From assembly GCA_964501135.1 (NCBI GenBank), contig CAZCRI010000003.1:18654-82653 (forward strand): a stretch of DNA of 64,000 bases, given 5' to 3'. A program made the position numbers and the translations under genes. Shown piece by piece: positions 97 to 53,912 of this stretch. The notes below the pieces were generated by a model that was not told the DNA's origin, ran no database searches, and saw nothing but the letters and a program-made list of their open reading frames with translations. Source of the DNA: an uncultured Candidatus Saccharibacteria bacterium (GTDB lineage: Bacteria; Patescibacteriota; CPR2; UBA1875; CAIMLA01). Position 1 is the stretch's first letter. Each line of letters opens with the position of its first letter.

Positions 97-236
97 TGAA
101 TACTTTTTGTGACGATAGACAAAAAGTATTACGGAAGTGCCTTGCTTTAGCAAGGAAGGGAAAGCTGTTCTCGATTAACTCAAATAATATTGAGAGAGAT
201 TCCAGCCTTCGCTGGAATGACGGGAGGGTGATAAGT
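97..236 (+). promoter_or_regulatory. Composite upstream element (hairpin H1 100-129, hairpin H2 140-155, hairpin+AATGACGGGAGGG motif 202-228) ahead of topA
   Basis: Perfect 11-bp stem atactttttgt/acaaaaagtat; ccttgc-ttta-gcaagg stem; ccagc-cttc-gctgg followed by aatgacgggaggg. Same module order recurs at 15627-15718 and 21260-21366. Confidence 0.4.
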
Positions 237-312
237 ATTGAATAAAACTTTTATACAAAGTTTTTAAACATTTGACACCACCCACTTTACCCGGTACCAT
301 TAGTCCTTAGTT

Positions 313-2472
313 ATGAAACTTGTAATTGTAGAGTCTCCCGCAAAGGGAAAGACAATAGAGAAATATCTCGGACCGGGCCACAAAGTGATGGCCTCTTTTG
401 GCCATGTCCGTGATTTACCGAAAAGCAACAAGGACGCCGTAGATGTAGAACACGGCTTCAAACCAAAGTACATTATGACTCCCAGGGGCAGCAAAACCGT
501 CCGGGAACTCCGAGCCGCCGCCGCAGGAGCCGACAAAGTATTACTCGCTACCGACCCGGATCGTGAAGGGGAAGCGATTTCTTGGCATCTTGCCGAAGTG
601 CTAAAGCTTAAAGATAAAGATTACGACCGCATCGAATTTCACGAGATTACCAAGGGAGCCGTAGAGAAGGCGGCTGCCAATCCTCGCAAGATAAACATGG
701 ACCTCGTGGACGCACAGCAGGCAAGACGTATTCTAGACCGCTTGGTCGGGTATGATCTTTCTGGTGTAATCTGGAAGAAAGTCCGCTACGGTCTCTCTGC
801 CGGACGGGTACAATCCCCAGCTCTACGCATCATTATGGAACGAGAACGTGAGATTCGAGCCTTCATCTCCGAGGATTTTTGGACCCTAACTGCAGAAACC
901 AAAACTTCCAAAAATGCGCCTCTCTCCCTGACTTGTACAGAGGAACCGAGAAGCAAAGAGCGTCTGGACGAGATAGAAAAGGTAGCAAAGGCCGGTGACT
1001 GGAAGGTATCTAAGGTCAGTAGTAGCGAAGCCAAGCGTGCCCCCAAGGCACCATTTACCACCTCTACCTTGCAACAAACTGCTAGTACTAGACTGGGGTT
1101 TTCGCCATCTCGTACCATGTCTGTAGCTCAGAAACTTTACGAAGCGGGTCTAATTAGCTATATGCGTACCGATAGTACCAATCTCTCCGAGACCGCCATA
1201 GGCCAGATAAAGGAAGTGGTTACCAATAAATACGGCAAGGAATTCCTCTCTCCTCATGTTTATAAAACCAATAGCAAGAATGCTCAGGAAGCCCATGAAG
1301 CGATTCGTCCAACCAACTTTGAACACGAACACGCCGGCCACAACGAGGAGCAAAAGAAACTTTACCAGTTGATCTGGGCACGTACTGTCGCTAGCCAGAT
1401 GGCAGACGCCAAAATGCTCCGCAGCAAGATTACTGCCACATATACTACAGATAAACAGATGCCGACCTTCACTGCCAATGGTAGTCTGATGCAATTTCCA
1501 GGTTGGCTTCTTGCCGATCCTGCAGCAAAGGGAGAGGAAGTAATGCTGCCCGAGGTTACAGAAGGGGAACCACTAACACTCATTGACTTTATTACATTAG
1601 CTAAGCAGACCGAGCCACCATCCCGCTACACCGAGGCTGGCCTGATCAAGGAGCTTGAGAAACGCGGTATCGGTCGTCCTAGTACCTATGCCAGCATTAT
1701 GAAAACTCTTGAGGATCGCGGATATGTAACCAAAGAAGGGCGAACGCTCTTCCCAACAGATACTGGAGATGTCGTCAGCTCATTCCTCGAGAAATACTTT
1801 GCCGAATACATCAGCGACACCTTTACCGCCGAAATGGAGGACGAACTCGACCTTATCTCCAACGGCCAGGCAAAATACGCGCAAATTCTTTCTGATTTCT
1901 ATGGCTTCTTCCGCGAGAAGGTAAAAGAAGAAACTAAGCGTCCGGCAGAACCAGTACCAGCAGATCTACAGTACAAGTGTCCAACTTGCGGAAGCGATAT
2001 GATCATAAAGCTCGGAAAAAATGGTAAGTTTATGAGCTGTTCTCGATTTCCAGAGTGCGAGGGAGCCCTCACTATGGAAGGGCGCGAGATGGAAGGACCC
2101 AAAGAAATAGGGGAATCCTGCCCCGAGTGCGGTGGTGCCCTGATAGAGCGTGAGGGAAAGTATGGAAAGTTTATCTCCTGCAGCAATTATCCAAAATGTA
2201 AATATATCCGCAAAGACGAAAACGAAGAAAAGGCTGGCGGTACAGGCGTCGCCTGTCCAAAATGTAAAAAGGGCGAGATGACAGAAAAACGAGGACGTTT
2301 CGGTGTTTTCTACTCGTGCAATAATTATCCAAAATGTAAGTATGCCATCAAAGCCAAACCTACAGGTAATACCTGTAAAATCTGTGGCTCACTGATGATG
2401 GAAGGAACCAAAACGATCCCAGAGCGCTGCTCGGACAAGGAATGTCCGGGTCACAATCCACATAAGGCTTAA
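313..2472 (+). CDS. topA: DNA topoisomerase I with C-terminal Cys4 zinc-ribbon repeats
   Basis: N-terminal TOPRIM start MKLVIVESPAKGKTIEKYLG; multiple CxxC...CxxC zinc ribbons at the C-terminus; 719 aa. Confidence 0.95.
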   Translation: MKLVIVESPAKGKTIEKYLGPGHKVMASFGHVRDLPKSNKDAVDVEHGFKPKYIMTPRGSKTVRELRAAAAGADKVLLATDPDREGEAISWHLAEVLKLKDKDYDRIEFHEITKGAVEKAAANPRKINMDLVDAQQARRILDRLVGYDLSGVIWKKVRYGLSAGRVQSPALRIIMEREREIRAFISEDFWTLTAETKTSKNAPLSLTCTEEPRSKERLDEIEKVAKAGDWKVSKVSSSEAKRAPKAPFTTSTLQQTASTRLGFSPSRTMSVAQKLYEAGLISYMRTDSTNLSETAIGQIKEVVTNKYGKEFLSPHVYKTNSKNAQEAHEAIRPTNFEHEHAGHNEEQKKLYQLIWARTVASQMADAKMLRSKITATYTTDKQMPTFTANGSLMQFPGWLLADPAAKGEEVMLPEVTEGEPLTLIDFITLAKQTEPPSRYTEAGLIKELEKRGIGRPSTYASIMKTLEDRGYVTKEGRTLFPTDTGDVVSSFLEKYFAEYISDTFTAEMEDELDLISNGQAKYAQILSDFYGFFREKVKEETKRPAEPVPADLQYKCPTCGSDMIIKLGKNGKFMSCSRFPECEGALTMEGREMEGPKEIGESCPECGGALIEREGKYGKFISCSNYPKCKYIRKDENEEKAGGTGVACPKCKKGEMTEKRGRFGVFYSCNNYPKCKYAIKAKPTGNTCKICGSLMMEGTKTIPERCSDKECPGHNPHKA

Positions 2473-2473
2473 C

Positions 2474-2854
2474 ATGAGTAAACCCAAGGAAATATCGTAC
2501 GGATTCAAGATACCCGAAGCCAGCCTCTGGGCACTTGATGTCCCCACCGAAGCAGTTAGCATCGATGAGATTTCATACAATCTAGATATTCCATATTTGG
2601 AACACGAAGGTACCGACGACTGGAATATGAGCATTACCTCGCTGTTAGCAAATTTTAATAACGAACCACATCATGCCGCTCAAGTAGAAAGAGCCAATCT
2701 CGACTACCCGATAGAGTTATACCTATTTGATGGCCGTTGGATTATACTAGATGGAGTCCACAGGCTTACAAAAGCGATTCGCCTAGGAAGAACACAAATC
2801 AAAGCACGACGAATCCCGCAATTAGAAATCGACCGCTTACTCTCTACTTTATAG
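2474..2854 (+). CDS. Hypothetical protein, possible ParB/Srx-like fold (ILDGVHRL...A..LG motif)
   Basis: ATG overlaps topA stop region (translational coupling); C-terminal DGxHR-type motif reminiscent of ParB-like nuclease/sulfiredoxin superfamily; weak. Confidence 0.4.
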   Translation: MSKPKEISYGFKIPEASLWALDVPTEAVSIDEISYNLDIPYLEHEGTDDWNMSITSLLANFNNEPHHAAQVERANLDYPIELYLFDGRWIILDGVHRLTKAIRLGRTQIKARRIPQLEIDRLLSTL

Positions 2855-2885
2855 CAATAAATTTTGAGATTATTAGGAGGACACC

Positions 2886-2984
2886 ATGGCAAAAGGACAG
2901 AATTCACAGAAGAATGTGAAGAAACCCAAGAAAGCAAAGAAGCCAAAGGGCGTACAGGTAACATCGAGTATTACCCCTAGCTAG
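2886..2984 (+). CDS. Small lysine-rich peptide (32 aa) MAKGQNSQKNVKKPKKAKKPKGVQV...
   Basis: Strong RBS aggagg 6 nt upstream of ATG; below ORF-track length cutoff; highly basic. Confidence 0.25.
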   Translation: MAKGQNSQKNVKKPKKAKKPKGVQVTSSITPS

Positions 2985-2985
2985 C

Positions 2986-3204
2986 ATGGACTACAAGAAA
3001 GTATTTTTTACACTTCTTACGACGGTGCTTTTTGTGCTGCTTATTATTGGCGGTTATTTACTAACGAAACAGCAAACCGAGAGGAAGGCTACCCCTTCGG
3101 ACGGTGGTGTCGCTTGTACCATGGAGGCAAGAGTCTGTCCCGACGGCAGCTATGTCAGTCGCAGTGGTCCAAAGTGTGAATTTGCAGCCTGCCCGATGAA
3201 ATAA
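2986..3204 (+). CDS. Small membrane-anchored Cys-rich protein (72 aa, 4 Cys)
   Basis: N-terminal hydrophobic helix then CTMEARVCPDGSY...CEFAACP; no recognised family. Confidence 0.35.
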   Translation: MDYKKVFFTLLTTVLFVLLIIGGYLLTKQQTERKATPSDGGVACTMEARVCPDGSYVSRSGPKCEFAACPMK

Positions 3205-3221
3205 TTAGACGTAAACCACGA

Positions 3222-3268
3222 AAAAACCCACTGCCGGGTAGGTCCTTTCGGATCCACTCAGAAGTGGG
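3222..3268. terminator. Bidirectional stem-loop/terminator between small ORF and sigma factor gene
   Basis: cccactgccgggtaggtcctttcggatccactcagaagtggg; on minus strand followed by tttttt run. Confidence 0.5.
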
Positions 3269-3877
3269 TCAGTTTATCTGCATCTGTATTGCAAGCTTTC
3301 GCTTGGCGCGCTGCAGTGCGTTGTCGACGGCTTTGGGGTGTGACCCCAGTTCGAGAGCGATCTCTACGTAGGAGCGCCCGTTGTAGAACAAGCGCAGGCT
3401 GCTCGCCTCAAACTTCGAAAGAGACGCCGCAAGCCCCTGGCACACCGCCTCGTGCGAGAGTGCTGCCAGACAGACCTCTTCAGCCGAAACAGATGCCTCG
3501 TCGCAGAACACATCTAACAGTGTCCGGTCGCCGTCGCTGGTCATGTCAACGGTACGACTCAGAGAGACATACCCGTTGAGCGGACTGTGCTTCTTACGCA
3601 TAGCCTGCTTCACGGCGGATATGAGATGACGAGAAACACAGAGCTCAGCGAAGCTATGGAACGACGCACCCTTCGAAGGGTCGTAGTCCCAGATCGCTTT
3701 GCAGAGACCGATGTTTCCCTCCTGGACGACATCATCTCGACCTGCTCCTGCCAAGAAGTAGGAACGCGCCCTGGAACGAATCATCGGGCGGTAACGACGG
3801 AAGAGCTCGTCGTAGGCTGATTGGTCGCCCTTACGGGCGGCCACAACCAGCTGAGGATCTGCCTTTTGTGTGTGCAT
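3269..3877 (-). CDS. Sigma-70 family sigma factor, SigH (Spo0H)-like; high-GC (~62%) gene
   Basis: Region 2 (DDVVQEGNIGLCKAI), FAELCVSRHLISAVK, LNGYVSLS...DRTLLDVF and region 4 HTH; resembles Bacillus SigH by memory; strong RBS gggggga before ATG; GC far above neighbouring genes. Confidence 0.85.
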   Translation of the reverse strand: MHTQKADPQLVVAARKGDQSAYDELFRRYRPMIRSRARSYFLAGAGRDDVVQEGNIGLCKAIWDYDPSKGASFHSFAELCVSRHLISAVKQAMRKKHSPLNGYVSLSRTVDMTSDGDRTLLDVFCDEASVSAEEVCLAALSHEAVCQGLAASLSKFEASSLRLFYNGRSYVEIALELGSHPKAVDNALQRAKRKLAIQMQIN

Positions 3878-3932
3878 TTTGTCTCCCCCCGAGACGTCGA
3901 ACTTGCTTTTGCGGGTACAACTTGTCGAGCAA

Positions 3933-3961
3933 GATTATATACCATTTATACCTCCGTGTCA
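3933..3961 (-). promoter_or_regulatory. Consensus sigma-70 type promoter TTGACA-N17-TATAAT for the SigH-like gene
   Basis: Minus strand: ttgaca(3956-3961) 17-nt spacer tataat(3933-3938). Confidence 0.5.
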
Positions 3962-3980
3962 AGATTAATATACCCCAGGC

Positions 3981-4014
3981 AACATTCTAACATTCTATAG
4001 AATGTTAGAATGTT
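3981..4014. promoter_or_regulatory. Perfect palindrome copy 1: aacattctaacattcta|tagaatgttagaatgtt = (ACATTCTA)x2 then (TAGAATGT)x2; abuts -35 (ttgaca 4016-4021) of ArsR-like gene
   Basis: Exact reverse-complement symmetry read directly; identical 32-bp core at 4327-4358 and 8224-8255. Confidence 0.85.
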
Positions 4015-4052
4015 GTTGACAAGAGTCAGTGTACAAGACGTAAGATAAACCC

Positions 4053-4325
4053 ATGGGGAAATCTCCGAAACAACTAGAACGTTATTGTAAAGGGATAGCA
4101 AATCACCACCGCATCAGCATCCTTAATCTTATTCACGACGAACCGGGAATATGCGTGGAAGACATATCAAAGAAACTGGAGACAAGTTACAAGACTGTGG
4201 CCATTCACACTCAAAAACTAGTCCAAGCAGGGCTAGTAAACAAACGCTATATGGGAAAGGAGATGACGCAGGTACTATCTCCCTACGGCGAAACTTTCTA
4301 CAAATTTCTACAATCAATAAAGTAA
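4053..4325 (+). CDS. ArsR/SmtB-family winged-helix transcriptional regulator (90 aa)
   Basis: HHRISILNLIHDEPGICVEDISKKLETSYKTVAIHTQKLVQAGLV is a typical ArsR HTH; flanked on both sides by the 32-bp palindrome. Confidence 0.75.
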   Translation: MGKSPKQLERYCKGIANHHRISILNLIHDEPGICVEDISKKLETSYKTVAIHTQKLVQAGLVNKRYMGKEMTQVLSPYGETFYKFLQSIK

Positions 4326-4326
4326 T

Positions 4327-4358
4327 ACATTCTAACATTCTATAGAATGTTAGAATGT
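4327..4358. promoter_or_regulatory. Perfect 32-bp palindrome copy 2 (between ArsR-like gene stop and rarA start)
   Basis: acattctaacattctatagaatgttagaatgt exact. Confidence 0.85.
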
Positions 4359-4369
4359 ATATGAGAGAC

Positions 4370-5674
4370 ATGGAAAAGAAAAGTATATTTAATTTAAATG
4401 ATGCTCATAAACCGTTAGCGGAGAGGATGCGTCCTACGGACTTTGCCCATTTCTTTGGGCAAGGGGAAATTGTTGGAGAGGGAACGCTGCTACGCCAGAT
4501 CATCGAGAATGACAGCCTCGGGTCGATTATCCTCTGGGGACCTCCTGGAACCGGCAAAACTACCTTGGCACGAATTATTGCCAACCAGACCAAAAGTCAC
4601 TTCGAGGAATTCAGTGCCGTCACAAGCGGGATTGCCGACCTGAGACGGGTGGTAAAGGAAGCCCGCGAACGCCGCGAACTCTATCAGCAAAAGACGGTAC
4701 TTTTTGTTGACGAGATTCATCGTTTTAGCAAAAGTCAGCAAGACGGCTTCTTGCCCCATATTGAGAACGGCACTATAGTCCTCATTGGTGCCACTACCGA
4801 AAATCCAGGGTTCGAGATCAACTCCGCCATCATGTCTCGTTCCAAACTCTTTGAACTAAAGCCTCTTACCGAGGATGATATCAAAAATATCATCAAGCTT
4901 GCCCTCAAGGATAAAGTCAGCGGACTCGGTGAGCGAAAACTTACGATAGAAAAGAAAGCCCTAGACCAGTTAGCCGCCTTCTCGGCAGGGGATGCCCGTG
5001 TAGCCCTAAACTCGCTCGAGATCGCCACCAAGGCAAAACTTTTGAACAACAAAATTACTCAAGAAATGGTAGAACAAGCCCTGAGCAAACGCTTTGTCAG
5101 TGCCTACAAAGGTGGCGCTAATCACTATGACATTATCAGTGCATTTATCAAGTCAATGCGCGGCAGCGACCCTGACGCAGCTATCTACTGGCTCGCCAGG
5201 ATGATCGAGGGCGGGGAAGACCCCAAGTTTATTGCTCGCCGTATGCTCGTCTTTGCCTCCGAAGATATCGGCAATGCCGCACCAATGGCACTGGTCCTTG
5301 CCAACGCTACCTTTGAGGCCGTCACCAAGATTGGTCTCCCCGAGGCTCGAATCAATCTTGCCCAATGCGTAACCTATCTCGCAAGCGCTCCCAAATCCAA
5401 TGCCTCATACCTAGCAATCGATAAGGCGCTAGGCGATGTGCGCAAGGAAACCTTTAGCGGGGTCCCGAAGCACATTGTGAATGCGCCAACAGCTTTTGAT
5501 AAAAGTCAAGGAAAATCATCTGGGTATAAGTATCCTCATGATTACCCGGGCCACTATGTAAACCAGGAATATCTACCACCAGAACTTATAAATAAAAAGT
5601 ACTACTTACCTACCGAGAACGGGGGAGAAGCCGAGATTAAGACTCGCCTTGCTAAGCTAAAAGATAAAAAGTAA
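4370..5674 (+). CDS. rarA: Replication-associated recombination protein A (AAA+ ATPase RarA/MgsA)
   Basis: Walker A GPPGTGKTTLARIIA, Walker B LFVDEIHRF, C-terminal MgsA domain; ORF track starts at 4355 but ATG 4370 (MEKK) has better spacing from gagaga. Confidence 0.9.
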   Translation: MEKKSIFNLNDAHKPLAERMRPTDFAHFFGQGEIVGEGTLLRQIIENDSLGSIILWGPPGTGKTTLARIIANQTKSHFEEFSAVTSGIADLRRVVKEARERRELYQQKTVLFVDEIHRFSKSQQDGFLPHIENGTIVLIGATTENPGFEINSAIMSRSKLFELKPLTEDDIKNIIKLALKDKVSGLGERKLTIEKKALDQLAAFSAGDARVALNSLEIATKAKLLNNKITQEMVEQALSKRFVSAYKGGANHYDIISAFIKSMRGSDPDAAIYWLARMIEGGEDPKFIARRMLVFASEDIGNAAPMALVLANATFEAVTKIGLPEARINLAQCVTYLASAPKSNASYLAIDKALGDVRKETFSGVPKHIVNAPTAFDKSQGKSSGYKYPHDYPGHYVNQEYLPPELINKKYYLPTENGGEAEIKTRLAKLKDKK

Positions 5675-5715
5675 AATACCAGGAGAGCAAACCTCTAATT
5701 TAGAATGGAGACGAT

Positions 5716-7533
5716 ATGTCAGAGATAGCCGAAATCGAGCGACCCCACGGACTAGAAGACAGCACAGAAAACCATCTAGAAGATAGCGAAATTACAGAAA
5801 CTCTTAAGCCTAGAAGCTACGTAGACTCCGATGGTACAGAGAGACAAATCTACACACTAAAGAGCAAAGACGGCAAACCCGTAGAGGTAGTATTCTACTC
5901 TCCAGAGGAGATTCCATTCAACGGTGACGTAGTTTCAGATAAGCACGTCATGATACTGGGCGAACAGCCTAAATGGCGCTCCAAGAAAGAGTGGGATACT
6001 TTTGGGCACAACATCGCAACTGAATCTCTAGGGGGAGTCAATAGCCCCTCTATGAGCCATCAAACAGAGCGGGTTCTTGAAGGTAACGGCTTAATTTTTG
6101 CCGAGTCAAACCCTACGGCGATTCTAGACTTGGCAATGATACTGACAGGGGATTCAAGCAAAGAAGATCAAAATGATCGACGAAACGCCCATCTCAAGAT
6201 AATCACCCCTAGAGCACAAGAGATGATGGACAAAATCATCGCGTGTAAGCTATATGACTCGAACGGCAAAAGAAGAAATGCTAGCAGTTATGAAGGTGAG
6301 GTACTAACCTTGCTCGCCCTGGCTGGTAATAACGAGGCTCAGGAGATACTTGACCGCAGTTACGAGCTGATGCAAAAACAGGATGCCGAAACCGAAGCAG
6401 AATTACAAGATCAAATCGCAGAAATGGGGGAGCGCAACAAAGACTCTGAAGATATGAAGATAGAAGATCTAGTTGCTGTTCATGCCACCCGATATTTACC
6501 AAAAACAATCAGTGGTACCCCGACCATTCGTACCACCTTTGATGCTACGGGCTGGGAAGTTCCACGCGACACCGTTCATTTCTCCCTGAACCATCACGTC
6601 GCTGGTCATATGTATGGTAGCTGGGATGGAGCTCCCTACGTCGTGATATCTTCCCTGGGGGATATGATGGAGACCAATGGCAAACCAGCCTCTCTTAACA
6701 CCGTAGATACTTACTTTGAGGCCACTCCTGGTACAGGGGTGAAACTCCCTGAAAGCACCTGGATAGCTAAGCCAGGAATACTGGCAGAAGGTGAAATCGT
6801 TGCGTTCGATGACGAGAAACAAGAGCTTGTATACAAAAACGAACGAATAAATGCAGCCGATATTGCCAAGCTTTACGAATCTCTCGGCTACGACGAAAAA
6901 CAATGGTTCGAATGGACCGTCCTCGACAGGCTTACTGCCGACCTTAGCCAATATGAAGAATGGTGGCGTATCCATGTCACACAAGAACAAAGCGACCGTG
7001 TTTATGAATATCGAAAAGCTGAGGGTTCGGGTCAAGAAACGACTTTGGCATTCGTTGAATTGGGTGTCGATGAAGCAGTGCGAAAAATCTGTGAAGAGAA
7101 GTTTGGGGTAGTACTCTCGGACAAAGACTTCGCTACTTTATGCAACACCATGCGTTCGTACTTTGCTAGTAAGATAAAAACTTTTGCCATCAACAGTCAG
7201 ATTACCAGAATGGGCTACAAACCAGAGCACGGCGGGATGTGGGCCTGGGGAGACTCCTGGGACGTTACTGGCTCTACCGCAAAGTTAGGTGGTGAGATTG
7301 GAGTTCCCGTAATGGCACACTCCGGCACTATCAATTCCGATATGGAAAGCTATGTACCAAGTGAATTCAGACGAATGAATGCTGAGCCTAGGGCAGACGA
7401 TGATGGTTATGCCCCCGTGAAACCCAAAGACCCTAGAGAAGTGAAAGAAGATGTAAAAACTACTGTTAGGGAAAAGGCTGATAAAATATCACCGCAACTC
7501 CGCCGCGCCCTCTACCTGATGGGGGCGCTCTAG
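5716..7533 (+). CDS. Large hypothetical protein (605 aa), acidic N-terminus, no recognisable domain
   Basis: RBS ggaga before ATG; long uninterrupted ORF at native GC; no motif recognised. Confidence 0.6.
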   Translation: MSEIAEIERPHGLEDSTENHLEDSEITETLKPRSYVDSDGTERQIYTLKSKDGKPVEVVFYSPEEIPFNGDVVSDKHVMILGEQPKWRSKKEWDTFGHNIATESLGGVNSPSMSHQTERVLEGNGLIFAESNPTAILDLAMILTGDSSKEDQNDRRNAHLKIITPRAQEMMDKIIACKLYDSNGKRRNASSYEGEVLTLLALAGNNEAQEILDRSYELMQKQDAETEAELQDQIAEMGERNKDSEDMKIEDLVAVHATRYLPKTISGTPTIRTTFDATGWEVPRDTVHFSLNHHVAGHMYGSWDGAPYVVISSLGDMMETNGKPASLNTVDTYFEATPGTGVKLPESTWIAKPGILAEGEIVAFDDEKQELVYKNERINAADIAKLYESLGYDEKQWFEWTVLDRLTADLSQYEEWWRIHVTQEQSDRVYEYRKAEGSGQETTLAFVELGVDEAVRKICEEKFGVVLSDKDFATLCNTMRSYFASKIKTFAINSQITRMGYKPEHGGMWAWGDSWDVTGSTAKLGGEIGVPVMAHSGTINSDMESYVPSEFRRMNAEPRADDDGYAPVKPKDPREVKEDVKTTVREKADKISPQLRRALYLMGAL

Positions 7534-7555
7534 GCAAATTCTCTATACTATAAAA

Positions 7556-7591
7556 TACCTAGTGTGGTTATTACCACACTAGGTATTTTTG
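7556..7591 (+). terminator. Rho-independent terminator after 605-aa gene
   Basis: atacctagtgtgg-ttatt-ccacactaggtat followed by ttttt. Confidence 0.6.
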
Positions 7592-7605
7592 AATAAGATT
7601 ATACT

Positions 7606-7634
7606 TGACAATTCTGTCCAAAAGACGTATTATA
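7606..7634 (+). promoter_or_regulatory. Promoter TTGACA-N17-TATTAT for high-GC gene 7698-8087
   Basis: ttgaca 7606-7611, 17-nt spacer, tattat 7629-7634. Confidence 0.45.
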
Positions 7635-7697
7635 TGCTGTCGAAATCATTCGACCTACCGACGAGGTTGCCCAAAGGCAACGAGGGGAGGTGGCTTC

Positions 7698-8087
7698 ATG
7701 CCGCCGATTGCTAGCGAAGAAGAGAAGAGGCAGTACATCGAACTTCTCCTGAAGAACGCTCGTAGACTGGACTACCGGTCTATCCTGCGTTCACCGGAAG
7801 TGAAGCAGGAGTTGAACGGTCAGGAACTGCCGTCCAGTCTTCCGGTCTGGACTATTGCCATCGACGCTGATGACACCTACATCGTCACCGGCCTCGACGC
7901 CAAGGGGCAGGAAGTCGTGAACTTCCTCTACACCATCGGTGGAGAAGAGTACGAACCACGACTCACCACCTTTGTGGCCGCCCAGCTGCTCGTCGAAGGG
8001 GCCATCATCGACCTCATCGTCCAGCACGGCCCTGGCCTCTACTCTGATGTCATCATCGACGAGGTTGTTCAGGACATGGTCGGGTAG
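7698..8087 (+). CDS. Hypothetical protein (130 aa), high-GC island gene
   Basis: RBS gaggggagg then ATG at 7698 (ORF track frame opens at 7605); ~58% GC. Confidence 0.5.
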   Translation: MPPIASEEEKRQYIELLLKNARRLDYRSILRSPEVKQELNGQELPSSLPVWTIAIDADDTYIVTGLDAKGQEVVNFLYTIGGEEYEPRLTTFVAAQLLVEGAIIDLIVQHGPGLYSDVIIDEVVQDMVG

Positions 8088-8223
8088 TCGGCATCCACTC
8101 ACAACAAGGTCCGCCAGGAGAAGGCAGCCAGACCCTCGACTTTACCCGAAGTCCGAGCCACATCACGCCCCGTAGGACGTTCTCAACTCGAGAGCGCCCT
8201 CCGGGGCGCTTTCATGTAAAAAT

Positions 8224-8255
8224 ACATTCTAACATTCTATAGAATGTTAGAATGT
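8224..8255. promoter_or_regulatory. Perfect 32-bp palindrome copy 3 upstream of high-GC membrane protein gene
   Basis: acattctaacattctatagaatgttagaatgt exact. Confidence 0.85.
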
Positions 8256-8413
8256 TGTGCTGAGTAATAATTAAGCTAAGGACGGTAAACCCCTTTACAA
8301 AGGCGGAAAAGGGGAATATAATCTGGCCGTCGAGATTCTTCGACGCACTTTGACTGGTGCTTATATTCGAAACGTGGCCTGGCGGCCACCAAGACCTAAG
8401 GAGGCTGGGCCTA

Positions 8414-8965
8414 ATGAACCCAACTCTTCGTTTGACATGGCGCCTCGCGCCCTATATGTTCTTCGCCCTCGGCGGACTGCTCCTCGTAGCTCTCGAACTC
8501 ACCGTCCTGATCCTGATCGGTGTTCACGGTCTGGATGCACTCACGGTGATCGGAACCATCTATCTGGCGTACGTCTGCAAGATGATCGTCGAGTACATGG
8601 GTGGCAACGTGATCGTCAACGAGCTTGGCGAACGCAACGGAAAACCGATCAAGGTCTTCCGTCCTGGCAAGAAGAACATTCGCTTTCTGAAGAAGCTTGG
8701 CTGGTATCACGACTTGGGGAACTACTATCCCGTACTCGTGAACCCTCGTGAGGGCAAGTTTAGCCTCACCAAGCATCTCTTCATGCTCGAACCTGGCTCG
8801 GAGAAGTTCTCCGACCAGCTCCTCGAAGTAGCAGCCACCAACGCGGTGGCCTACGAGGAAATCGCAAAGAAGGTCCAGACCAGCAAGTACTGCGCTTCAA
8901 GTGATCTGAGAAAGTTCGAGAAGGCGAATGCCATCTCGGAGTCAATCAAGGATATCGTGAAGTAG
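8414..8965 (+). CDS. Hypothetical membrane protein (2 TM N-terminus + soluble C-terminus), high-GC island gene
   Basis: RBS aaggagg then ATG 8414 (MNPTLRL...); hydrophobic segments FFALGGLLLVALELTVLILIGV. Confidence 0.5.
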   Translation: MNPTLRLTWRLAPYMFFALGGLLLVALELTVLILIGVHGLDALTVIGTIYLAYVCKMIVEYMGGNVIVNELGERNGKPIKVFRPGKKNIRFLKKLGWYHDLGNYYPVLVNPREGKFSLTKHLFMLEPGSEKFSDQLLEVAATNAVAYEEIAKKVQTSKYCASSDLRKFEKANAISESIKDIVK

Positions 8966-9048
8966 AACACAACCAGACTACAGACAACAGACAACACAGA
9001 ACATAGTCTGAGAAGAATAGTGAGTGTCCCACACCAGTCAAAGCGCAG

Positions 9049-9088
9049 GGGGCCGACCGCGAACAGCGGCCGGCCCCTTTGCCGTTTT
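9049..9088 (+). terminator. GC-rich rho-independent terminator
   Basis: ggggccgaccgc-gaaca-gcggccggcccc then tttgccgtttt. Confidence 0.6.
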
Positions 9089-9144
9089 ACCTTGTTTTAA
9101 GCACTACTCAAGAGTAGAATGTGGTTATACCAAGGAGAAATTCT

Positions 9145-11250
9145 ATGTCAAACCTTAACCTTAGTGATAACGAAAAACGAGATATTCAAAAATATCTTAC
9201 AGAAAATAAACTGCTCCCAGATAAATACAGGTTTCTTCTTTTTGATTCGACTCGTGAAGTAGAACTTATATGGAATGGCATGTCAGATGATATTGAGAGT
9301 TCAGTATTGCCATTTCAGACAATTGAGCATATTGATGAGCCACGAGATGAAGAGAAGATAAACTCTCAACAAGTGTTATTTGACACCTCGGGAAAACAAA
9401 TCGAAGGATGGTCAAATAAGCTTATCTGGGGCGATAACAAATTTATAATATCCTCACTTAAGAATGGCCCTCTTAGAAAACAGATTGAAGCAGAAGGCGG
9501 ACTAAAGTTAATCTATATAGACCCACCATTTGATGTCGGAGCTGACTTTTCTATGGAGGTAGAAGTTGGAGAGAATAACAGTAAGAATATCTTTACAAAA
9601 AAGCCATCGGTAATTGAAGAGGTCGCATACCGGGACACATGGGGAAAAGGCGCTGACAGCTTCATCTCAATGATATATGAACGACTGAAATTAATGAATG
9701 ATTTATTATCTGAAGACGGAAGTATTTACATACATTGTGACTCACGCGTAAATAGTTATATTCGTCTAATCCTTGACGAAGTGTTTGGAAGAGAAAACTT
9801 TGTAAATGAAATTGCCTGGTGCTACACGAGTGGCGGTGCTGGTAAAACAGCTTTTTCAAAAAAACATGATACGATATACCTCTATTCGAAGGCCAATAAG
9901 CACATTTTTAACATTCAATACTATAAGCGTTATGCCCTAATTCAAGAAGGGGAAGAAGTAGGTTTTGATCCTAGGATACAGTACTATAAAGATGAAAAGG
10001 GGAGAAGTTATCGTTTAAATCTTACTCTTGACTGGTGGAGCGACATTGGAATTGTTTCACCAAATAGCAACACAGAAAGGACGGACTATCCAACACAAAA
10101 GCCAGAGGGCTTACTTCAGAGAATAATTGAGACTTCATCAAATAAGGGCGATTTAGTAGCCGACTTTTTCTGTGGTTCAGGTACAACATTGGCAGTAGCA
10201 GAAAAACTGGGTCGTAAATGGATTGGTTCTGATCTTGGACGGTTTTCAATTCACACCACTCGTAAACGAATGATTGGCGTGCAACGAGAACTAAAAAATG
10301 CCGGGACAGACTTTAGACCATTTGAGATACTTAATATCGGTAAATACGAGAGGGAAAAGTACCTCGGTATTAACGATAGTTTGCGCGATGAAGAAAAACG
10401 AATGCAAAGAGAAAATAAGGAACGCGAATTTATCAAACTCATTCTTTCAGCCTATAAAGCCGAGGCTGTAAATTCCTTTAATAATTTCGTTGGGAAGAAG
10501 CGAGATAGGCTGGTAGCCGTGGGGTCAATTGATACGCCAGTAACAAATGACTTTCTGGAGAATATAATTATTGAGTGCAAAGAAAAGCATATTACAAAAG
10601 TAGACATTCTCGGATTTGACTATGAAATGGGCCTGGACTTTGAAACAACAAAGAAGCTAGGTATTGATGTTCAGTTTAAGGTCATACCTCGAGAAGTATT
10701 TGATAAAAGAGCAATAGAAAGAGGGCAAGTAAAGTTCTATGATGTTGCTTACATTGAAGTTAAACCCATTATCAAGGGCAGAGGAAATGAAAAAGAGGTA
10801 GCAATTGAACTAACCGACTTTAGCGTTTTTTACAATCAGGATAATACCGGAGAGGTTGAGGAAAAATTACAGGCCGGCGGCAGTAAAATTGTTATTGAAA
10901 ATGGACAGGTTATTAAAATTTTCAAGGATAAACAAAGCGGTATAGTAGAACGTGAAACTCTCACGAAGAAATGGACAGACTGGATTGATTATTGGTCTGT
11001 TGACTTTGAATTTGAAAGCAAGAAAGAACTTATCAACATCGCAGATCCCGCAACTGGTAGGGAGGAAAAGAAGTGGACTGGTAATTACATTTTTGAAAAT
11101 GAATGGCAATCCTTTAGAACTAAAAAAAACAGAAACTTAGAGTTAACATCTGCATATAAAATTACGTCGAAGGGTAAAATGAAAATTGCTATCAAGGTAA
11201 TTGATATTTTCGGTAACGATACCACCAAGGTAATTGAGGTGAATGTATGA
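9145..11250 (+). CDS. mod: Type III restriction-modification methyltransferase (Mod), beta-class N6A/N4C MTase
   Basis: Motif IV DPPF (IYIDPPFDV) precedes motif I FCGSGTT (ADFFCGSGTTLAVAEKLGRKWIGSD) with TRD between, the Type III Mod order; RBS aaggaga before ATG 9145; low GC (~37%). Confidence 0.8.
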   Translation: MSNLNLSDNEKRDIQKYLTENKLLPDKYRFLLFDSTREVELIWNGMSDDIESSVLPFQTIEHIDEPRDEEKINSQQVLFDTSGKQIEGWSNKLIWGDNKFIISSLKNGPLRKQIEAEGGLKLIYIDPPFDVGADFSMEVEVGENNSKNIFTKKPSVIEEVAYRDTWGKGADSFISMIYERLKLMNDLLSEDGSIYIHCDSRVNSYIRLILDEVFGRENFVNEIAWCYTSGGAGKTAFSKKHDTIYLYSKANKHIFNIQYYKRYALIQEGEEVGFDPRIQYYKDEKGRSYRLNLTLDWWSDIGIVSPNSNTERTDYPTQKPEGLLQRIIETSSNKGDLVADFFCGSGTTLAVAEKLGRKWIGSDLGRFSIHTTRKRMIGVQRELKNAGTDFRPFEILNIGKYEREKYLGINDSLRDEEKRMQRENKEREFIKLILSAYKAEAVNSFNNFVGKKRDRLVAVGSIDTPVTNDFLENIIIECKEKHITKVDILGFDYEMGLDFETTKKLGIDVQFKVIPREVFDKRAIERGQVKFYDVAYIEVKPIIKGRGNEKEVAIELTDFSVFYNQDNTGEVEEKLQAGGSKIVIENGQVIKIFKDKQSGIVERETLTKKWTDWIDYWSVDFEFESKKELINIADPATGREEKKWTGNYIFENEWQSFRTKKNRNLELTSAYKITSKGKMKIAIKVIDIFGNDTTKVIEVNV

Positions 11251-11804
11251 GCCAGCAATTCATTCCTTTTAGCCATGAGGACATAGAACTAAAAAATGCC
11301 TTGGTCGGTAAAGCAAGGGAATTAAGGAGCTCTGAAGATCTTGGTGCACAACTTTCATCGGCACTAATTTACGCAAGTATTACTGAGTATTTAGCCGAGA
11401 ACTTGTTAGCCAACTTAAGATACCTTGTTTATCGCTCCTCCTATGTTGACTTTGCCGGAATAATATTTATTGATGAGAGAAAGAAGACAAATAAGGCACA
11501 AAAGCAAACACTCGGAGACTCCAAGAACAACCTTGGAAAATACAGTTTCCCAGATAAGCCAGATATTATGGCGGTATTAGAGGAGATAAATAAATCAAGG
11601 AATAATCTATTCCACAATCTCGCCAAAGTTAAAGAGTCGGAATTGCATAAGATAGATACAGACATCAAATGTATACAGAATAATACAGAAGAATTTATTG
11701 AAAAAGTAAATGTACTTTATGCTGGTTTGCAGAAATTGGTAATACCAGAGGCGCCCCAAGTGCCGACTGATACTAAGGAGGGAAAAGAAAATGGCACTGC
11801 ATAA
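11247..11804 (+). CDS. Hypothetical 185-aa protein inserted between mod and res (overlaps both)
   Basis: ATGA overlap with mod stop and 14-nt overlap with res start; no motif recognised. Confidence 0.6.
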   Translation: MSQQFIPFSHEDIELKNALVGKARELRSSEDLGAQLSSALIYASITEYLAENLLANLRYLVYRSSYVDFAGIIFIDERKKTNKAQKQTLGDSKNNLGKYSFPDKPDIMAVLEEINKSRNNLFHNLAKVKESELHKIDTDIKCIQNNTEEFIEKVNVLYAGLQKLVIPEAPQVPTDTKEGKENGTA

Positions 11805-14472
11805 AGATTTTCCTAAGGACAAATTTCAAATACTCGACCCAGCGATTAGATGGTTTCCGGCTGAGGAGGATTTACGTAAGGATGGCTACGAAAAACTCCT
11901 GCCGCCTTTCGTACCTGAGTTAAGGGAAAGAGTAGCGGAGTGGCGTAAGGATCACTATGAGGGTGCTAGTAAGACCTCAAAGGCACTTCTAAGCTGGTGG
12001 TTTAAGGAGCCCCATACTATTTATGGCAAAGATGGTACAAGTATAGCTTTTCAATACTATTTTGCACAAAGAGAAGCCGTAGAAACAATCATCTGGTTAT
12101 ATGAAACGGAAAAAGTAGAGGGTAAATACGATTTAATAAAGTTTGACAAACTGGGACGGGTCAGTCCTAATATGTTTAGTGAAGAGTGGCTACGCTTTGT
12201 TATTAAGATGGCAACAGGTAGTGGCAAGACAAAAGTTATGAGTTTGCTTCTCGCCTGGTCTTACTTTCACAAGCTTTATGAAGAAGGGTCCCAGCTTTCC
12301 AAGAACTTCTTGCTCATAACGCCAAATATCATTGTTCTAGACAGGATTAAAAATGACTTTGTAGGTCTCAAGATATTCTACGAAGACCCAATTCTCCCAG
12401 ACAATGGCTACCATGGTCAAAACTGGCAAGATGATTTTCAGTTAAAGCTTCATCTACAGGATGAGGTTGGTGCTATTTCTAAATCTGGAAACATCTTTCT
12501 AACAAACATACACAGAGTGTATGAAGGAAGCATCAACGAGGCTAGTGCTGATGATGTTGATGTATCAAATTATTTTATGGGCAGTAAGGTGACAGGCAAA
12601 ACTAATGACTCAAAGGTAGATTTGGGTGAAATAGTAAGAGATATTGATGAGCTTATGATAATCAATGATGAAGCGCATCATATCCATGATCCGAATATGG
12701 CTTGGTCAAAGTCAATTGAAGATATTCATAACAAACTTCTACAAAAAGGTGGCAAACTTGCCTTGCAAATTGATGTTACCGCGACGCCAAAAAACAATCG
12801 TGGAGAGATTTTTGTTCAGACCGTAACTGACTACCCACTGGTTGAGGCCATCCACCAGGGTGTTGTCAAAAATCCAGTTTTGCCAGATCTTGCTAGCCAG
12901 GCAAAGTTACAAGAAAAACAAAGCTCAATTTTTTCTGAAAAGTATGAAGACTACATCCGACTTGGTGTAGAAGAGTGGGCCAAAACCTATAAAGAACTTG
13001 AACCGACAGGCAAGAAATCGATCTTGTTCATAATGACTGACGATACCAAGAACTGTGATGACGTAGCTGAGTTTTTAGAGAGGAGCTACGCACAACTCAA
13101 AGGGGCTGTTTTAACAATTCACACTAACCAAAGTGGTGAAATATCAGAGACAGTCTCAGGGAAGAAAGAAAAAGAATTACAAGAACTTCGTAAAAAGGCA
13201 AATGAGATAGATAGTCTTGAGAGTCCGTATAGGGTTATCGTTTCGGTACTTATGCTAAAAGAAGGTTGGGATGTAAAGAACGTAACAACTATCGTGGGGT
13301 TGCGACCATATGGTTCAGACTCAAAAATTCTCCCCGAACAAACTCTCGGTCGCGGTCTTCGTAGAATGTATTTTGGACAAGATGTTGAGGAATACGTGAG
13401 CGTCATCGGTACACCTGCATTTATGGAGTTTGTAGAGTCAATCAAGGCTGAAGGTGTTGAGTTAGAAAAGAGAAGAATGGATCGTTCAGGCACTCCGATT
13501 ACACCGACTGTTATTGAGGTTGATACCGCAAATGTCAAAAAGGATATTGATAATCTAGATATTGAGCTGCCAGTTCTTACTCCGAGAATACAGAGAGAAT
13601 ACAAAAATCTGAATCTTTTGAGTGTTGATAAATTCAAACACAAAAGAATCAAAATAAAACAGTTCTCAGAGGAAGAGAAAAAAGAGATTGTTTTCAAGGA
13701 AATAATTGAAGACAAGTTACATCATACAACAGTCCTGAATAGTTCTATTGAACCTAACTATCAAAGTGTAGTTGGATTCTTTGTTCAACGAATTATGAAA
13801 GAACTAAGGTTGTTCGGTTGCTACGATATACTTTTTGGTAAAGTAAAGGTGTTTATAACTCACGACTTATTTGAAAAGGAAGTTGATCTAAACGACTCCA
13901 ATATTCTGAGAAACCTGTCTGAATTAGAGGCAGTCAAAACAATAGTTGAGACATTCAAAAAGGAAATAAATGACCTGACAGTACAGGATGTTGGTGATAC
14001 TGAAATAAAGAATTATCTCAAAGTAAGTAGCGCGAGACCTTTCGTTGTTACTGATGCTAAATATCTTCTACCGAAGAAAAGCGTATTCAATAAGATAGTT
14101 GGAGATAGTGATTTTGAGCTGGAATTTGCAGATTTTCTTGAGAGAGCTGATGATGTTATTTCATTTGCGAAGAACTACCTAGAAATTCACTTCAAGATTG
14201 ACTATAAAAATGCAAGCGGAGCAATTTCCAGCTATTACCCAGATTTCTTTGTCAAAACAGATAATAAGACGGTCTATATTGTAGAAACTAAGGGACGAGA
14301 AGATCTAGACGATATAGAGAAAATTAAGAGATTGGCACAATGGTGTGAAGACGCAACTGAAAGACAAAAGAAGATAGAATACAAGATGCTTTACGTGAAG
14401 CAAGACGAATGGGAGAGATATAGACCAAGTAAATTCACCGAGTTGATTACTAGTATTGGAATGAAGCCATGA
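11791..14472 (+). CDS. res: Type III restriction enzyme Res subunit (SF2 helicase + C-terminal PD-(D/E)xK nuclease)
   Basis: Walker A MATGSGKTKVM, DEAH box IINDEAHHIHD, helicase motif VI-like region, C-terminal YYPDFFV...VYIVETKGRED nuclease motif. Confidence 0.8.
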   Translation: MALHKDFPKDKFQILDPAIRWFPAEEDLRKDGYEKLLPPFVPELRERVAEWRKDHYEGASKTSKALLSWWFKEPHTIYGKDGTSIAFQYYFAQREAVETIIWLYETEKVEGKYDLIKFDKLGRVSPNMFSEEWLRFVIKMATGSGKTKVMSLLLAWSYFHKLYEEGSQLSKNFLLITPNIIVLDRIKNDFVGLKIFYEDPILPDNGYHGQNWQDDFQLKLHLQDEVGAISKSGNIFLTNIHRVYEGSINEASADDVDVSNYFMGSKVTGKTNDSKVDLGEIVRDIDELMIINDEAHHIHDPNMAWSKSIEDIHNKLLQKGGKLALQIDVTATPKNNRGEIFVQTVTDYPLVEAIHQGVVKNPVLPDLASQAKLQEKQSSIFSEKYEDYIRLGVEEWAKTYKELEPTGKKSILFIMTDDTKNCDDVAEFLERSYAQLKGAVLTIHTNQSGEISETVSGKKEKELQELRKKANEIDSLESPYRVIVSVLMLKEGWDVKNVTTIVGLRPYGSDSKILPEQTLGRGLRRMYFGQDVEEYVSVIGTPAFMEFVESIKAEGVELEKRRMDRSGTPITPTVIEVDTANVKKDIDNLDIELPVLTPRIQREYKNLNLLSVDKFKHKRIKIKQFSEEEKKEIVFKEIIEDKLHHTTVLNSSIEPNYQSVVGFFVQRIMKELRLFGCYDILFGKVKVFITHDLFEKEVDLNDSNILRNLSELEAVKTIVETFKKEINDLTVQDVGDTEIKNYLKVSSARPFVVTDAKYLLPKKSVFNKIVGDSDFELEFADFLERADDVISFAKNYLEIHFKIDYKNASGAISSYYPDFFVKTDNKTVYIVETKGREDLDDIEKIKRLAQWCEDATERQKKIEYKMLYVKQDEWERYRPSKFTELITSIGMKP

Positions 14473-15317: not shown

Positions 15318-15339
15318 GCACTAATTATTTTTACATTTA

Positions 15340-15508
15340 CCACTTTTGGCAGCAAAAGTGGTGCAAAACTGCCGACTCCTTGCAAAATCGCAAGTGTTGC
15401 TTCTAACTCACTCGTTCTTAAATGACAAAACTCGTAATGCTCAAACATTGTCTTTTAAGATGCTCGCTCGGGTCGTCGCGCGCTGTATTTTGCAGGTCGC
15501 GGAAAGAA
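15340..15508 (+). repeat. ~170-bp repeat R1 (conserved ends, variable middle); inverted partner at 21073-21254
   Basis: ccacttttggcagcaaaagtgg hairpin, tgcaaaactgccgactccttgcaaaatcgc and ctcgggtcgtcgc.cgctgtattttgcaggtcgcggaaagaa shared with reverse complement of 21073-21254. Confidence 0.8.
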
Positions 15509-21072: not shown

Positions 21073-21254
21073 TTCTTTCCGCGACCTGCAAAATACAGCG
21101 AGCGACGACCCGAGTGACTATCATAAAAAATAATGTTTGACCCCGACGCTACCGTCGGGAGAGTTTTGCTTTTTATGAAGGAACGAAGTAGGAGTGACAC
21201 TAGCGATTTTGCAAGGAGTCGGCAGTTTTGCACCACTTTTGCTGTCAAAAGTGG
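21073..21254 (-). repeat. Repeat R2, inverted copy of R1
   Basis: Ends near-identical to R1 in reverse complement; middle ~80 bp diverged. Confidence 0.8.
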
Positions 21255-21259
21255 TAAGG

Positions 21260-31094: not shown

Positions 31095-31244
31095 TTTATC
31101 TCCTTCGTGGTTTTAGCGAGCGTTTGCTCTCCCACTAACTTTACATTTCTAATTGATATTGAATTCATAAATTGATTTATCTATAACTGTTTCCCGTGCT
31201 GTTTCGAGCTAGTTTCCCGCTTTCGCGGGAATGACGGGAGGGGA

Positions 31245-31787
31245 TTAAATCTTTTTTACTTGTAGACTGTCGAGCTCAACTGGGGTTTCGCGGCCAAACA
31301 TGTTGACCATAACCTTGATCTTACCCTTGTCCTGATCGACATCCTCTACCGCACCATCAAAGCTCTTGAAAGGCCCGTCGATGATACTAACTAGGTCACC
31401 CTTGCGTAGATCAATCTGGAACTTAGGCTCTTCGATACCCATACGACGCTGAATCAGTGAAACCTCAGCATCGCTCATTGGGATTGGAGCAGTACCAGAA
31501 CCGATGAAACCAGTAACCTGAGGCGTGTTGCGTACTACGTACCAACTATCGTCAGTTACAATCATTTCCACCATGACGTAACCTGGGAAGATTCGCTTCT
31601 CGACTGTACGACGACGACCATTCTTGATTTCGATGGTTTTTTCCTTTGGTACAATGACGTCAAAAATCTTGTCCGACATATCGAGAGACTTGATTCTCTG
31701 CTTCAGGTTATCCGCAACTTTCTCTTCGTAACCAGAGTAAGTATGGATAACGTACCAATTTCTACCTTCACTAACCTGCTTTGACAT
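31245..31787 (-). CDS. nusG: Transcription antitermination factor NusG
   Basis: NGN + KOW domains; WYVIHTYSGYE start. Confidence 0.9.
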   Translation of the reverse strand: MSKQVSEGRNWYVIHTYSGYEEKVADNLKQRIKSLDMSDKIFDVIVPKEKTIEIKNGRRRTVEKRIFPGYVMVEMIVTDDSWYVVRNTPQVTGFIGSGTAPIPMSDAEVSLIQRRMGIEEPKFQIDLRKGDLVSIIDGPFKSFDGAVEDVDQDKGKIKVMVNMFGRETPVELDSLQVKKI

Positions 31788-32000: not shown

Positions 32001-32083
32001 TTTCTCTCCAAAATTCCTTGGATTTTAAAAAAGCCTCTCGGCTTCTAAATACAGTAATATTCTACCTAAAATATACCGTTATG

Positions 32084-33349: not shown

Positions 33350-33421
33350 AATTTATCTGTTACTATTATAAGTGTAACAAAGGTTCAAGTAAAGATCAAT
33401 CTTTAAAGAATGGAGTAAAAC

Positions 33422-53849: not shown

Positions 53850-53863
53850 CTATTTTGGTCGAC

Positions 53864-53892: not shown

Positions 53893-53912
53893 GGTCGTCG
53901 ACGTTGACGCGT

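Follow-up and report, generated by a model that had tools for sequence, protein, structure and literature searches.

Probable GC-rich accessory cassettes in a Paceibacteria-like genome: a SigH-family sigma factor gene of apparent Coriobacteriia-like origin and a small membrane-protein gene with a conserved 5′UTR–3′UTR helix

The 64-kb stretch of DNA analyzed here (contig CAZCRI010000003.1; hereafter the window) has an overall guanine-plus-cytosine (GC) content of 46.0% and carries, near its start, three GC-rich open reading frames (ORFs): a SigH-like gene for an alternative sigma factor (sigma), which lies between topA and rarA, a 129-amino-acid (aa) ORFan (B1), and a gene for a small membrane protein (B2) (Table 1). 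Two further GC-rich islands, C and D, are located within the S10 and str operons. The GC-rich stretches are probably self-contained accessory cassettes, with GC-richness as a persistent trait of the cassette pool, not a fresh host signature.

The sigma, B1, and B2 ORFs have a GC of 54–57% and a GC at third codon positions (GC3) of 0.66–0.73, against a GC3 of 0.49 for the native gene pool; neighboring genes have a GC of 0.414 (ArsR-like gene), 0.483 (rarA), 0.473 (a 605-aa ORF), and 0.487 (topA). The sharp contrast with native neighbors described in the initial annotation is thus evident ORF by ORF, and also from segmentation of the window by 300-nt sliding windows, as that annotation had proposed: the islands were recovered as four discrete segments, the only long high-GC segments in the 64 kb (3047–3987, 7601–9096, 53748–54761, and 56968–59263), with the second composed of two sub-blocks (7651–8210 and 8373–9085). 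The values of ~62% for the sigma gene and ~58% for the block at 7600–9050 given in that annotation hold as local peaks (0.62 and 0.60 in 200-nt windows), and not as means (0.571 for the gene, and 53.5% for the block at 7601–9096 overall).

Each of the three ORFs is predicted to form a single-ORF transcription unit of its own, with a sigma-70-type consensus promoter and a structured leader in front and an intrinsic terminator behind. Of all promoter-like sites in 2800–9300, the three that score best are exactly those upstream of the sigma, B1, and B2 ORFs (sigma-70-type match scores of 12/12, 11/12, and 11/12, respectively), and a GC-rich hairpin plus T-run stands behind each ORF, so that the near-consensus promoters and GC-rich stem-loops noted in the initial annotation are upheld. 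The whole island transcripts fold better than shuffled versions of themselves (z of −7.0, −3.5, and −4.0). In the 5′ untranslated region (UTR) of sigma, the Shine-Dalgarno sequence sits within the loop of a GUCUC/GAGAC hairpin. A GTCGA..TCGAC 5′ hairpin was considered as a general cassette signature and rejected, being present only in B1 and the B2 family. No paralogy between the islands was detected by all-against-all BLASTP; the B1, B2, C, and D proteins gave nothing significant against Pfam, PHROGs, and PADLOC, nor did B1 and B2 against NCBIfam; and Rfam returned no rRNA or other known RNA at the gathering threshold over the whole window, nor at E ≤ 1 over 3150–9150.

Table 1. Positions of the GC-rich units and of neighboring features in the window (TM, transmembrane; R-M, restriction–modification; L001, a sister genome described in the text).
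Feature	Position	Strand	Details
Sigma terminator	3221–3268	−	Imperfect 20-bp hairpin (inverted repeat 3226–3245/3250–3269) and minus-strand T-run; terminator-like match
Sigma ORF, SigH-family alternative sigma factor, 202 aa	3269–3877	−	GC 0.571, GC3 0.66; Pfam, NCBIfam, homologues, neighbor-joining tree
Sigma leader and promoter	3878–3962	−	TTGACA-17-TATAAT (3962–3934); 12/12 promoter match
Palindrome copy 1	3982–4013		32 nt, perfect; between divergent sigma and ArsR-like promoters; repeat search
ArsR/SmtB-like winged-helix regulator	4053–4325	+	GC 0.41; Pfam HTH_24 and HTH_5; NCBIfam HTH_metalloreg below cut-off
Palindrome copy 2	4327–4358		12 nt upstream of likely rarA start (ATG 4370); repeat search
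B1 promoter and leader	7605–7697	+	TTGACA-17-TATTAT (7605–7633), 11/12 promoter match; 5′ hairpin 7639–7654, hairpin 7666–7681, Shine-Dalgarno 7682–7690
B1 ORF, 129-aa ORFan	7698–8087	+	GC about 0.57, GC3 0.73
B1 3′ element and terminator	8148–8216	+	19-bp hairpin 8166–8208; recurs in L001
Palindrome copy 3	8224–8255		Between B1 terminator and B2 promoter; repeat search
B2 promoter and leader	8294–8413	+	TTTACA-17-TATAAT (8294–8322), conserved 85-nt leader, kept in seven genomes; P1 8329–8344, long-range arm 8346–8358, P3 8374–8389, Shine-Dalgarno 8398–8404
B2 ORF, 183 aa	8414–8965	+	Two N-terminal TM helices and small soluble domain; GC 0.536, GC3 0.73
B2 3′UTR	8966–9090	+	Long-range arm 9033–9045 (pairing with 8346–8358), terminator hairpin 9049–9077
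Type III R-M operon	9121–14472	+	Methylase, 185-aa ORF, Res; GC 0.37–0.38; adjoins B2, same variable interval
Island C	53748–54850	−	Between rpsJ and rplC; promoter, two ORFs, terminator
C terminator	53863–53893	−	
C2 ORF	53913–54236	−	
C1 ORF	54270–54734	−	
Island D	56968–59263	−	Between fusA and tuf; two units, near-identical TTGATT-17-TATAAT promoters (about 59186 and 58176)
D6 ORF	57133–57672	−	
D5 ORF	57669–57929	−	
D4 ORF	57950–58087	−	
D3 ORF	58250–58570	−	
D2 ORF	58597–58845	−	
D1 ORF	58861–59097	−	

The GC excess of the islands lies mostly at the third codon position (GC3 +0.19, compared with +0.05 at the first position and +0.03 at the second, GC2). Because GC2 is barely changed, amino-acid composition, which the initial annotation had allowed as a possible source of the shift, is ruled out as its cause. 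Codon bias of highly expressed genes is also ruled out, since the native ribosomal-protein genes and tuf are low in GC3 (0.35–0.51). All ten island ORFs have a GC3 of 0.62–0.73, and their relative synonymous codon usage (RSCU) correlates at 0.55–0.69 between islands, 0.17–0.45 with native genes, and 0.49–0.64 with Coriobacteriia-type sigH genes. This is the codon-usage comparison that the initial annotation had suggested. The islands thus have the atypical base composition and codon usage of a horizontally acquired genomic island.

The organism itself is placed by two features. The named relatives of its topoisomerase TopA, at 64–66% identity, are Candidatus Nomurabacteria, Paceibacterota, Taylorbacteria, Kaiserbacteria, and Azambacteria; and at 45324–46366 the S5 gene directly abuts the next ORF, which precedes secY, such that there is no space for L30, the lack of which is reportedly a trait of the Candidate Phyla Radiation (CPR). 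No Pfam match at 1e-5 was obtained for the 152-aa ORF that occupies the L15 position, and all window proteins, including EF-Tu, are singletons at 90% identity. The TopA relatives and the S5/L30 arrangement point to a Paceibacteria-like member of the CPR rather than to Saccharibacteria, and an actinobacterial host is not to be presumed for it; the premise of a Saccharibacteria-like epibiont with such a host, from which the initial annotation had argued, does not survive this placement.

Comparison with sister genomes points to turnover of gene content around the GC-rich units. The closest, L001 (GCA_041738615.1), has 95% TopA identity to the window and about 81% identity in housekeeping DNA; L094 (GCA_964511435.1) has 80% TopA identity, and L092/L093 represent a more AT-rich relative. 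The interval between rarA and s360 has wholly different content in the window, L001, and L094, and the sigma–rarA spacer also differs among these three genomes; thus, the GC-rich units are situated at or near a hotspot of gene turnover. Presence is patchy among close relatives: neither L001 nor L094 has B1 or B2 in the syntenic interval, and L092/L093 lack sigma at the topA locus. Both L001 and L094 have GC-rich ORFs of their own at other sites, non-homologous to those of the window. Background GC3 also shifts among these close relatives (TopA identity 80–95%), being ~0.33 in L092/L093, 0.44 in L094, 0.49 in the window, and 0.5–0.6 in L001.

The sigma protein contains the domains Sigma70_r2 (PF04542; 1.3e-13) and Sigma70_r4_2 (PF08281; 4.3e-07), both above cut-off, and shares this combination of region 2 and region 4 with the SigH (sigma-H/Spo0H-type) factors of Bacillota and Coriobacteriia. 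Its best NCBIfam models are all SigH equivalogs, headed by NF006148 (204.2 bits, just short of the cut-off of 208), with TIGR02859 (194.4 versus 294.8) and the remaining SigH equivalog models also below cut-off; such a near miss is consistent with a divergent family member. We infer a role as an alternative sigma factor. A homologue search (n = 6,580) gave one match at 67% (in L001), followed by Coriobacteriia SigH at 58–60% aa identity, and in a scan of GTDB the 80 loci listed out of at least 600 matches include Coriobacteriia-type genomes at 48–55% and Bacillota mostly at 44–51%. The three CPR copies form a single group in a neighbor-joining (NJ) tree (100% bootstrap); this group lies inside the SigH clade, is sister to Coriobacteriia (90%), and falls within an Actinomycetota group (86%). 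The donor-like Coriobacteriia-type genomes have a GC of 61–67%, and their sigH genes a GC3 of 0.76–0.86. Relative to Coriobacteriia SigH, the window protein is without the ~15-aa N-terminal extension and the C-terminal RCxxC tail. One Coriobacteriia metagenome-assembled genome (L002) has the gene order cysS/SpoU-type methylase/NYN (YacP-like)/sigH; this canonical neighborhood occurs neither in the window nor in its sisters, in which sigma lies between topA and rarA. The window gene differs from known sigH in lying between topA and rarA instead of following cysS–yacO–yacP, in residing in a CPR genome, and in evolving unusually fast.

The order topA–small peptide–sigma–rarA is common to the window and L001, and sigma orthologues occupy the same locus in L001 (66.5% identity) and L094 (53%). 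Among these three genomes, topA and rarA differ at 0.56–0.73 of their four-fold degenerate (4-fold) sites, which is at or close to saturation. A shared locus at such divergence argues for a single and ancient transfer; the sigma gene would thus be a SigH xenolog captured once, from a Coriobacteriia-like lineage, by an ancestor of at least three sister genomes, and then passed on by vertical descent together with its promoter, leader, and terminator. The leader differs from that of L001 at only 4 of 64 nt, compared with 71.5% nucleotide identity in the coding sequence, and the terminator is nearly identical in L001 and partly retained in L094. The nonsynonymous divergence (dN) of sigma between the window and L001 is 0.27, versus 0.036–0.055 for topA and rarA, or evolution about 7 times faster than that of its neighbors; this appears to be fast yet constrained evolution under purifying selection. 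GC3 is nevertheless 0.60–0.66 in all three CPR copies, at or above what a simple decay model, reasoned and not computed, would predict after such divergence. Of the transfer from high-GC Actinobacteria that the initial annotation proposed, the actinobacterial source therefore stands for sigma, but as one ancient capture.

B1 has a coding-type GC pattern, and is a lineage-specific ORFan in the same cassette format. No real homologue was found among 1.84 billion representatives, only weak repeat-like matches; its sole match in IMG/VR (36% over 59 aa) is probably spurious, and its AlphaFold2 model has a mean confidence (pLDDT) of 42, too weak for a fold search. The ~70-nt element at its 3′ end has copies behind two unrelated GC-rich ORFs in L001 (4454–4506 and 5136–5205) that are 93–96% identical, which exceeds the ~81% identity of housekeeping DNA between these genomes. 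Five matches to this element in a metagenome scan were all attributable to chance.

For B2, the AlphaFold2 model (pLDDT 64, too weak for a fold search) suggests two TM helices and a small alpha/beta domain. The family is rare, with only 13 homologue clusters among 5.8e9 proteins, at 39–58% identity; no actinobacterial homologue was detected, and none occurs in GTDB representatives or IMG/VR. In seven independent loci, B2 has a GC3 of 0.63–0.74 and the remainder of each locus a GC of 0.42–0.50; one of these loci is on a ~848-kb contig present in eight assemblies. The neighborhoods differ from genome to genome, and in the two loci read gene by gene (L003 and L006) B2 lies among other small GC-rich ORFs. 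For B2, host-to-epibiont transfer is contradicted by these data (13 clusters, no match in GTDB representatives, and low-GC contigs at all seven loci read). The distribution that the initial annotation had named as telling against transfer, with homologues confined to CPR genomes of similar local GC heterogeneity, is largely what was found as regards composition: contigs are low in GC in 7/7 cases, and the heterogeneity was read in L003 and L006.

Conservation of B2 extends beyond the coding sequence to the promoter (CCCTTTACA-N17-TAtAAT), a leader of ~85–90 nt, the 3′UTR, and the terminator. Leader hairpin P3 covaries, with four different helix sequences, and the structures of the leader and UTR match no Rfam family. 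A 13-bp helix joins the leader to the 3′UTR just ahead of the terminator, and is included in the minimum-free-energy fold of the B2 transcript. Across the window, L003, L006, L097, L099, L101, and L102, 97.8% of cells in its 13 pairs are paired; a single pair varies (U-A/A-U/C-G), and it is paired in 7/7 genomes. The helix score was matched by only 1/500 shuffles, and registers slid along the arms pair in 21–35% of cells. As in icaR of Staphylococcus aureus (PMC3868564) and hbs of Bacillus subtilis (PMC5737220), the 5′UTR and 3′UTR pair within one mRNA and complementarity is maintained across species, here with compensatory change; unlike in icaR, the Shine-Dalgarno sequence of B2 is left unmasked, with the 5′ arm ~40 nt upstream of it. 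By holding the ends of the B2 mRNA together, the helix may serve mRNA stability or expression control. A role of the two arms as inverted repeats at the DNA level is possible. The arms are unlikely to be transposon ends, since the conserved promoter and terminator both fall outside the segment that they enclose.

At 4-fold sites, B2 diverges by 0.485 on average, below both the saturation expectation of 0.69 and the 0.63–0.74 found for flanking orthologues of the same genome pairs. Synonymous divergence (dS) is about 1.0 and dN about 0.32 (dN/dS ratio, omega, of about 0.3), in a star-like pattern. The low synonymous divergence suggests that B2 spread between lineages after they had diverged, and the whole unit may have been moved or exchanged among related small-genome lineages. 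In Patescibacteria, most horizontal transfer reportedly takes place among members of the group itself (PMC12455944).

Islands C and D share the composition of the sigma, B1, and B2 units. They split the normally contiguous S10|L3 (rpsJ–rplC) and fusA|tuf junctions; past the inserts, both rplC and tuf are provided with a fresh promoter-like site. Termed ribosomal-operon islands in the initial annotation, they contain no rRNA according to Rfam. An intergenic element at 54851–54992 is conserved or repeated in an unrelated context at 16822–16956 of L001, as is window 192–239 at 31206–31253 (79% and 77% identity); these elements could represent small RNAs or hairpins with a regulatory role. As the initial annotation had stated, the type III R-M operon is anomalous in the opposite direction (GC 37–38%). 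Its 185-aa ORF (11247–11804), between methylase and Res, has weak CARF/Csx1-like matches in PADLOC (E = 1e-4). Elsewhere in the window, inverted repeats of ~170 nt that are 86–90% complementary (15337–15508 and 21073–21257) surround a 5.5-kb segment that encodes a sigma-region-4/HARE-HTH protein and a 1191-aa TrwB/DUF8128 coupling-protein-like ATPase, and a second low-GC islet (31869–34082; ~0.40) encodes a C5 cytosine methylase and a BglII-like endonuclease beside a cluster of four tRNA genes.

The 32-nt palindrome (ACATTCTAACATTCTA|TAGAATGTTAGAATGT) occurs as six exact half-sites against 0.88 expected, and each half holds TAGAAT, a −10-like hexamer. Copies 1 and 2 bracket the ArsR-like cassette, which is not found in the sigma–rarA spacer of L001. 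The palindrome is probably the operator of the ArsR-like regulator.

It is very unlikely that each island was imported separately and fairly recently by an epibiont from its high-GC actinobacterial host, with GC as an unameliorated donor signature. The grouping of sigma with Coriobacteriia SigH and the correlation of island codon usage with Coriobacteriia-type sigH (0.49–0.64) would fit such imports, and CPR bacteria take up foreign DNA (dprA adjoins topA in the sister genomes), but a Paceibacteria-like organism has no presumable actinobacterial host, and sigma was acquired before the split of three lineages with saturated synonymous sites. B1 is an ORFan, and B2 has no homologue from a GC-rich genome among the 5.8e9 proteins, is flanked by low-GC DNA at every locus read, and retains its promoter, leader, and terminator among low-GC genomes. 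The abrupt change of composition in a metagenome-derived contig could also be produced by chimeric assembly or binning, with foreign high-GC reads spliced into a CPR contig. This is extremely improbable given that the sigma cassette is at the same locus in three independent assemblies, that JGI, ENA, NCBI, and Logan assemblies all yielded B2 loci (among them the ~848-kb contig in 8 assemblies), and that the island borders are marked by AT-rich native-type promoters and by terminators.

Composition would carry no information on origin if the cassettes, apart from sigma, were native, fast-evolving, lineage-specific genes, with GC3 actively maintained, be it through selection for very stable, end-paired, structured mRNAs or through gene conversion biased toward GC at a hotspot of recombination. 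Several of the findings above fit this explanation, which is nonetheless unlikely: the persistence of high GC3 in sigma and B2 despite saturated neutral sites in their flanks, the strong folding of whole transcripts, the conserved and covarying UTR structures, the lower divergence of B2 synonymous sites relative to flanks, and the greater structure of island coding regions under synonymous shuffling (mean z of −1.74, versus −0.91 for native genes; p = 0.024). The last excess overlaps the native range, and the wholly different cassette content of sister genomes that are 95% identical in TopA, together with the changing neighborhoods of B2, indicates gain and loss. Recombining accessory genes are, moreover, usually AT-rich. 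The cassettes might also derive, as moron-like remnants or as cargo, from a phage, plasmid, or integrative element of higher GC circulating in the CPR clade, an explanation that we consider distinctly unlikely. Their architecture resembles that of phage morons, being autonomous promoter–ORF–terminator units of atypical GC between conserved genes (PMC3594210); many products are small membrane proteins; R-M systems adjoin cassettes in the window, L003, and L006; composition is uniform across islands; and a 3′ element is reused between unrelated cassettes. Set against this, PHROGs gave no significant match for the non-sigma products (best E 0.02) and only generic phage sigma-factor families for sigma; there is no credible relative in IMG/VR of the B2 family, sigma, B1, C1, or the palindrome; 120 viral matches to a 14-nt leader motif are all attributable to chance, missing the extended leader or partner arm; and the vicinity lacks integrase, capsid, and replication genes.

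The explanation that we favor, self-contained accessory cassettes with GC-richness as a lasting property, treats the three units as members of a compositionally coherent class (GC3 0.62–0.73) that would be scattered in this Paceibacteria-like genome and would include islands C and D. The GC-richness could stem from a donor pool higher in GC, from selection that favors strongly folded mRNAs, or from biased gene conversion. Certain findings weigh against this explanation. The structure excess is only modest when coding regions are considered alone. The ORFs of 2400–9200 include no integrase or transposase domains and there are no flanking direct repeats. No donor or vehicle was found for B1 and B2, and for most of islands C and D no search was made. 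The sister relation of sigma to Coriobacteriia may be distorted by the long CPR branches in a tree of 189 columns, and the absence of B1 and B2 from L001 refers to the syntenic interval only, within the 20 kb compared. The low synonymous divergence of B2 could instead reflect constraint on RNA structure; neither spread nor constraint fits a recent import from Actinobacteria. Of the repeated acquisition from a high-GC donor put forward in the initial annotation, what holds is that the GC-rich units are accessory or foreign and that sigma is actinobacterial; it fails for B2, and the sigma event is ancient.

The cassettes correspond only in part to known systems. A donor lineage is identifiable for sigma (Coriobacteriia), and none was found for B1 and B2. 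The nearest tRNA genes are 25 kb away from the units, unlike a genomic island at a tRNA integration site; nor are the units integron gene cassettes (a promoterless ORF plus attC beside intI), as they have consensus promoters of their own and no integrase, and the 32-nt palindrome, present in three copies only, does not bound each cassette. With phage morons (PMC3594210) they share their own promoter and terminator, a composition unlike that of neighbors, and insertion between genes that are adjacent in relatives, but they reside in a cellular chromosome with no prophage around them, and their non-sigma products have no significant phage family match. With the genomic islands and individually transferred genes of Patescibacteria (PMC12455944) they share the status of accessory DNA in streamlined CPR genomes, and R-M systems are among the genes transferred there; the window units differ in being 0.6–2.3 kb in size, GC-rich instead of AT-rich, and without mobility genes, in having a consensus promoter each, and in interrupting the S10 and str operons in two cases. 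A more speculative proposal, which we advance tentatively and regard as unlikely, is that these are a distinct class of "chromosomal morons": tiny, autonomously transcribed CPR units that spread between lineages without recognizable mobility genes, even into the S10 and str operons, and for which GC-rich, hyper-structured, end-paired mRNAs would be a selected trait (e.g., for ribonuclease resistance), while SigH and a palindrome-binding ArsR-like repressor may join in a control circuit.

The gain of functions by CPR bacteria is poorly understood, and the sigma gene would represent a case in which a regulatory gene crossed from Actinomycetota into a Paceibacteria-like clade and was long retained; if the hosts of this lineage are identified, the sigma phylogeny would suggest past contact with Coriobacteriia. 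Base composition alone can misdate and mis-source transfers, as the GC-richness of these units outlasts the saturation of neutral sites. The covarying helix between the 5′UTR and 3′UTR of B2 is a candidate for a new cis-acting mRNA architecture, and, taken together, the units suggest that miniature cassettes form a pool from which insertion is possible even inside the most conserved ribosomal operons.

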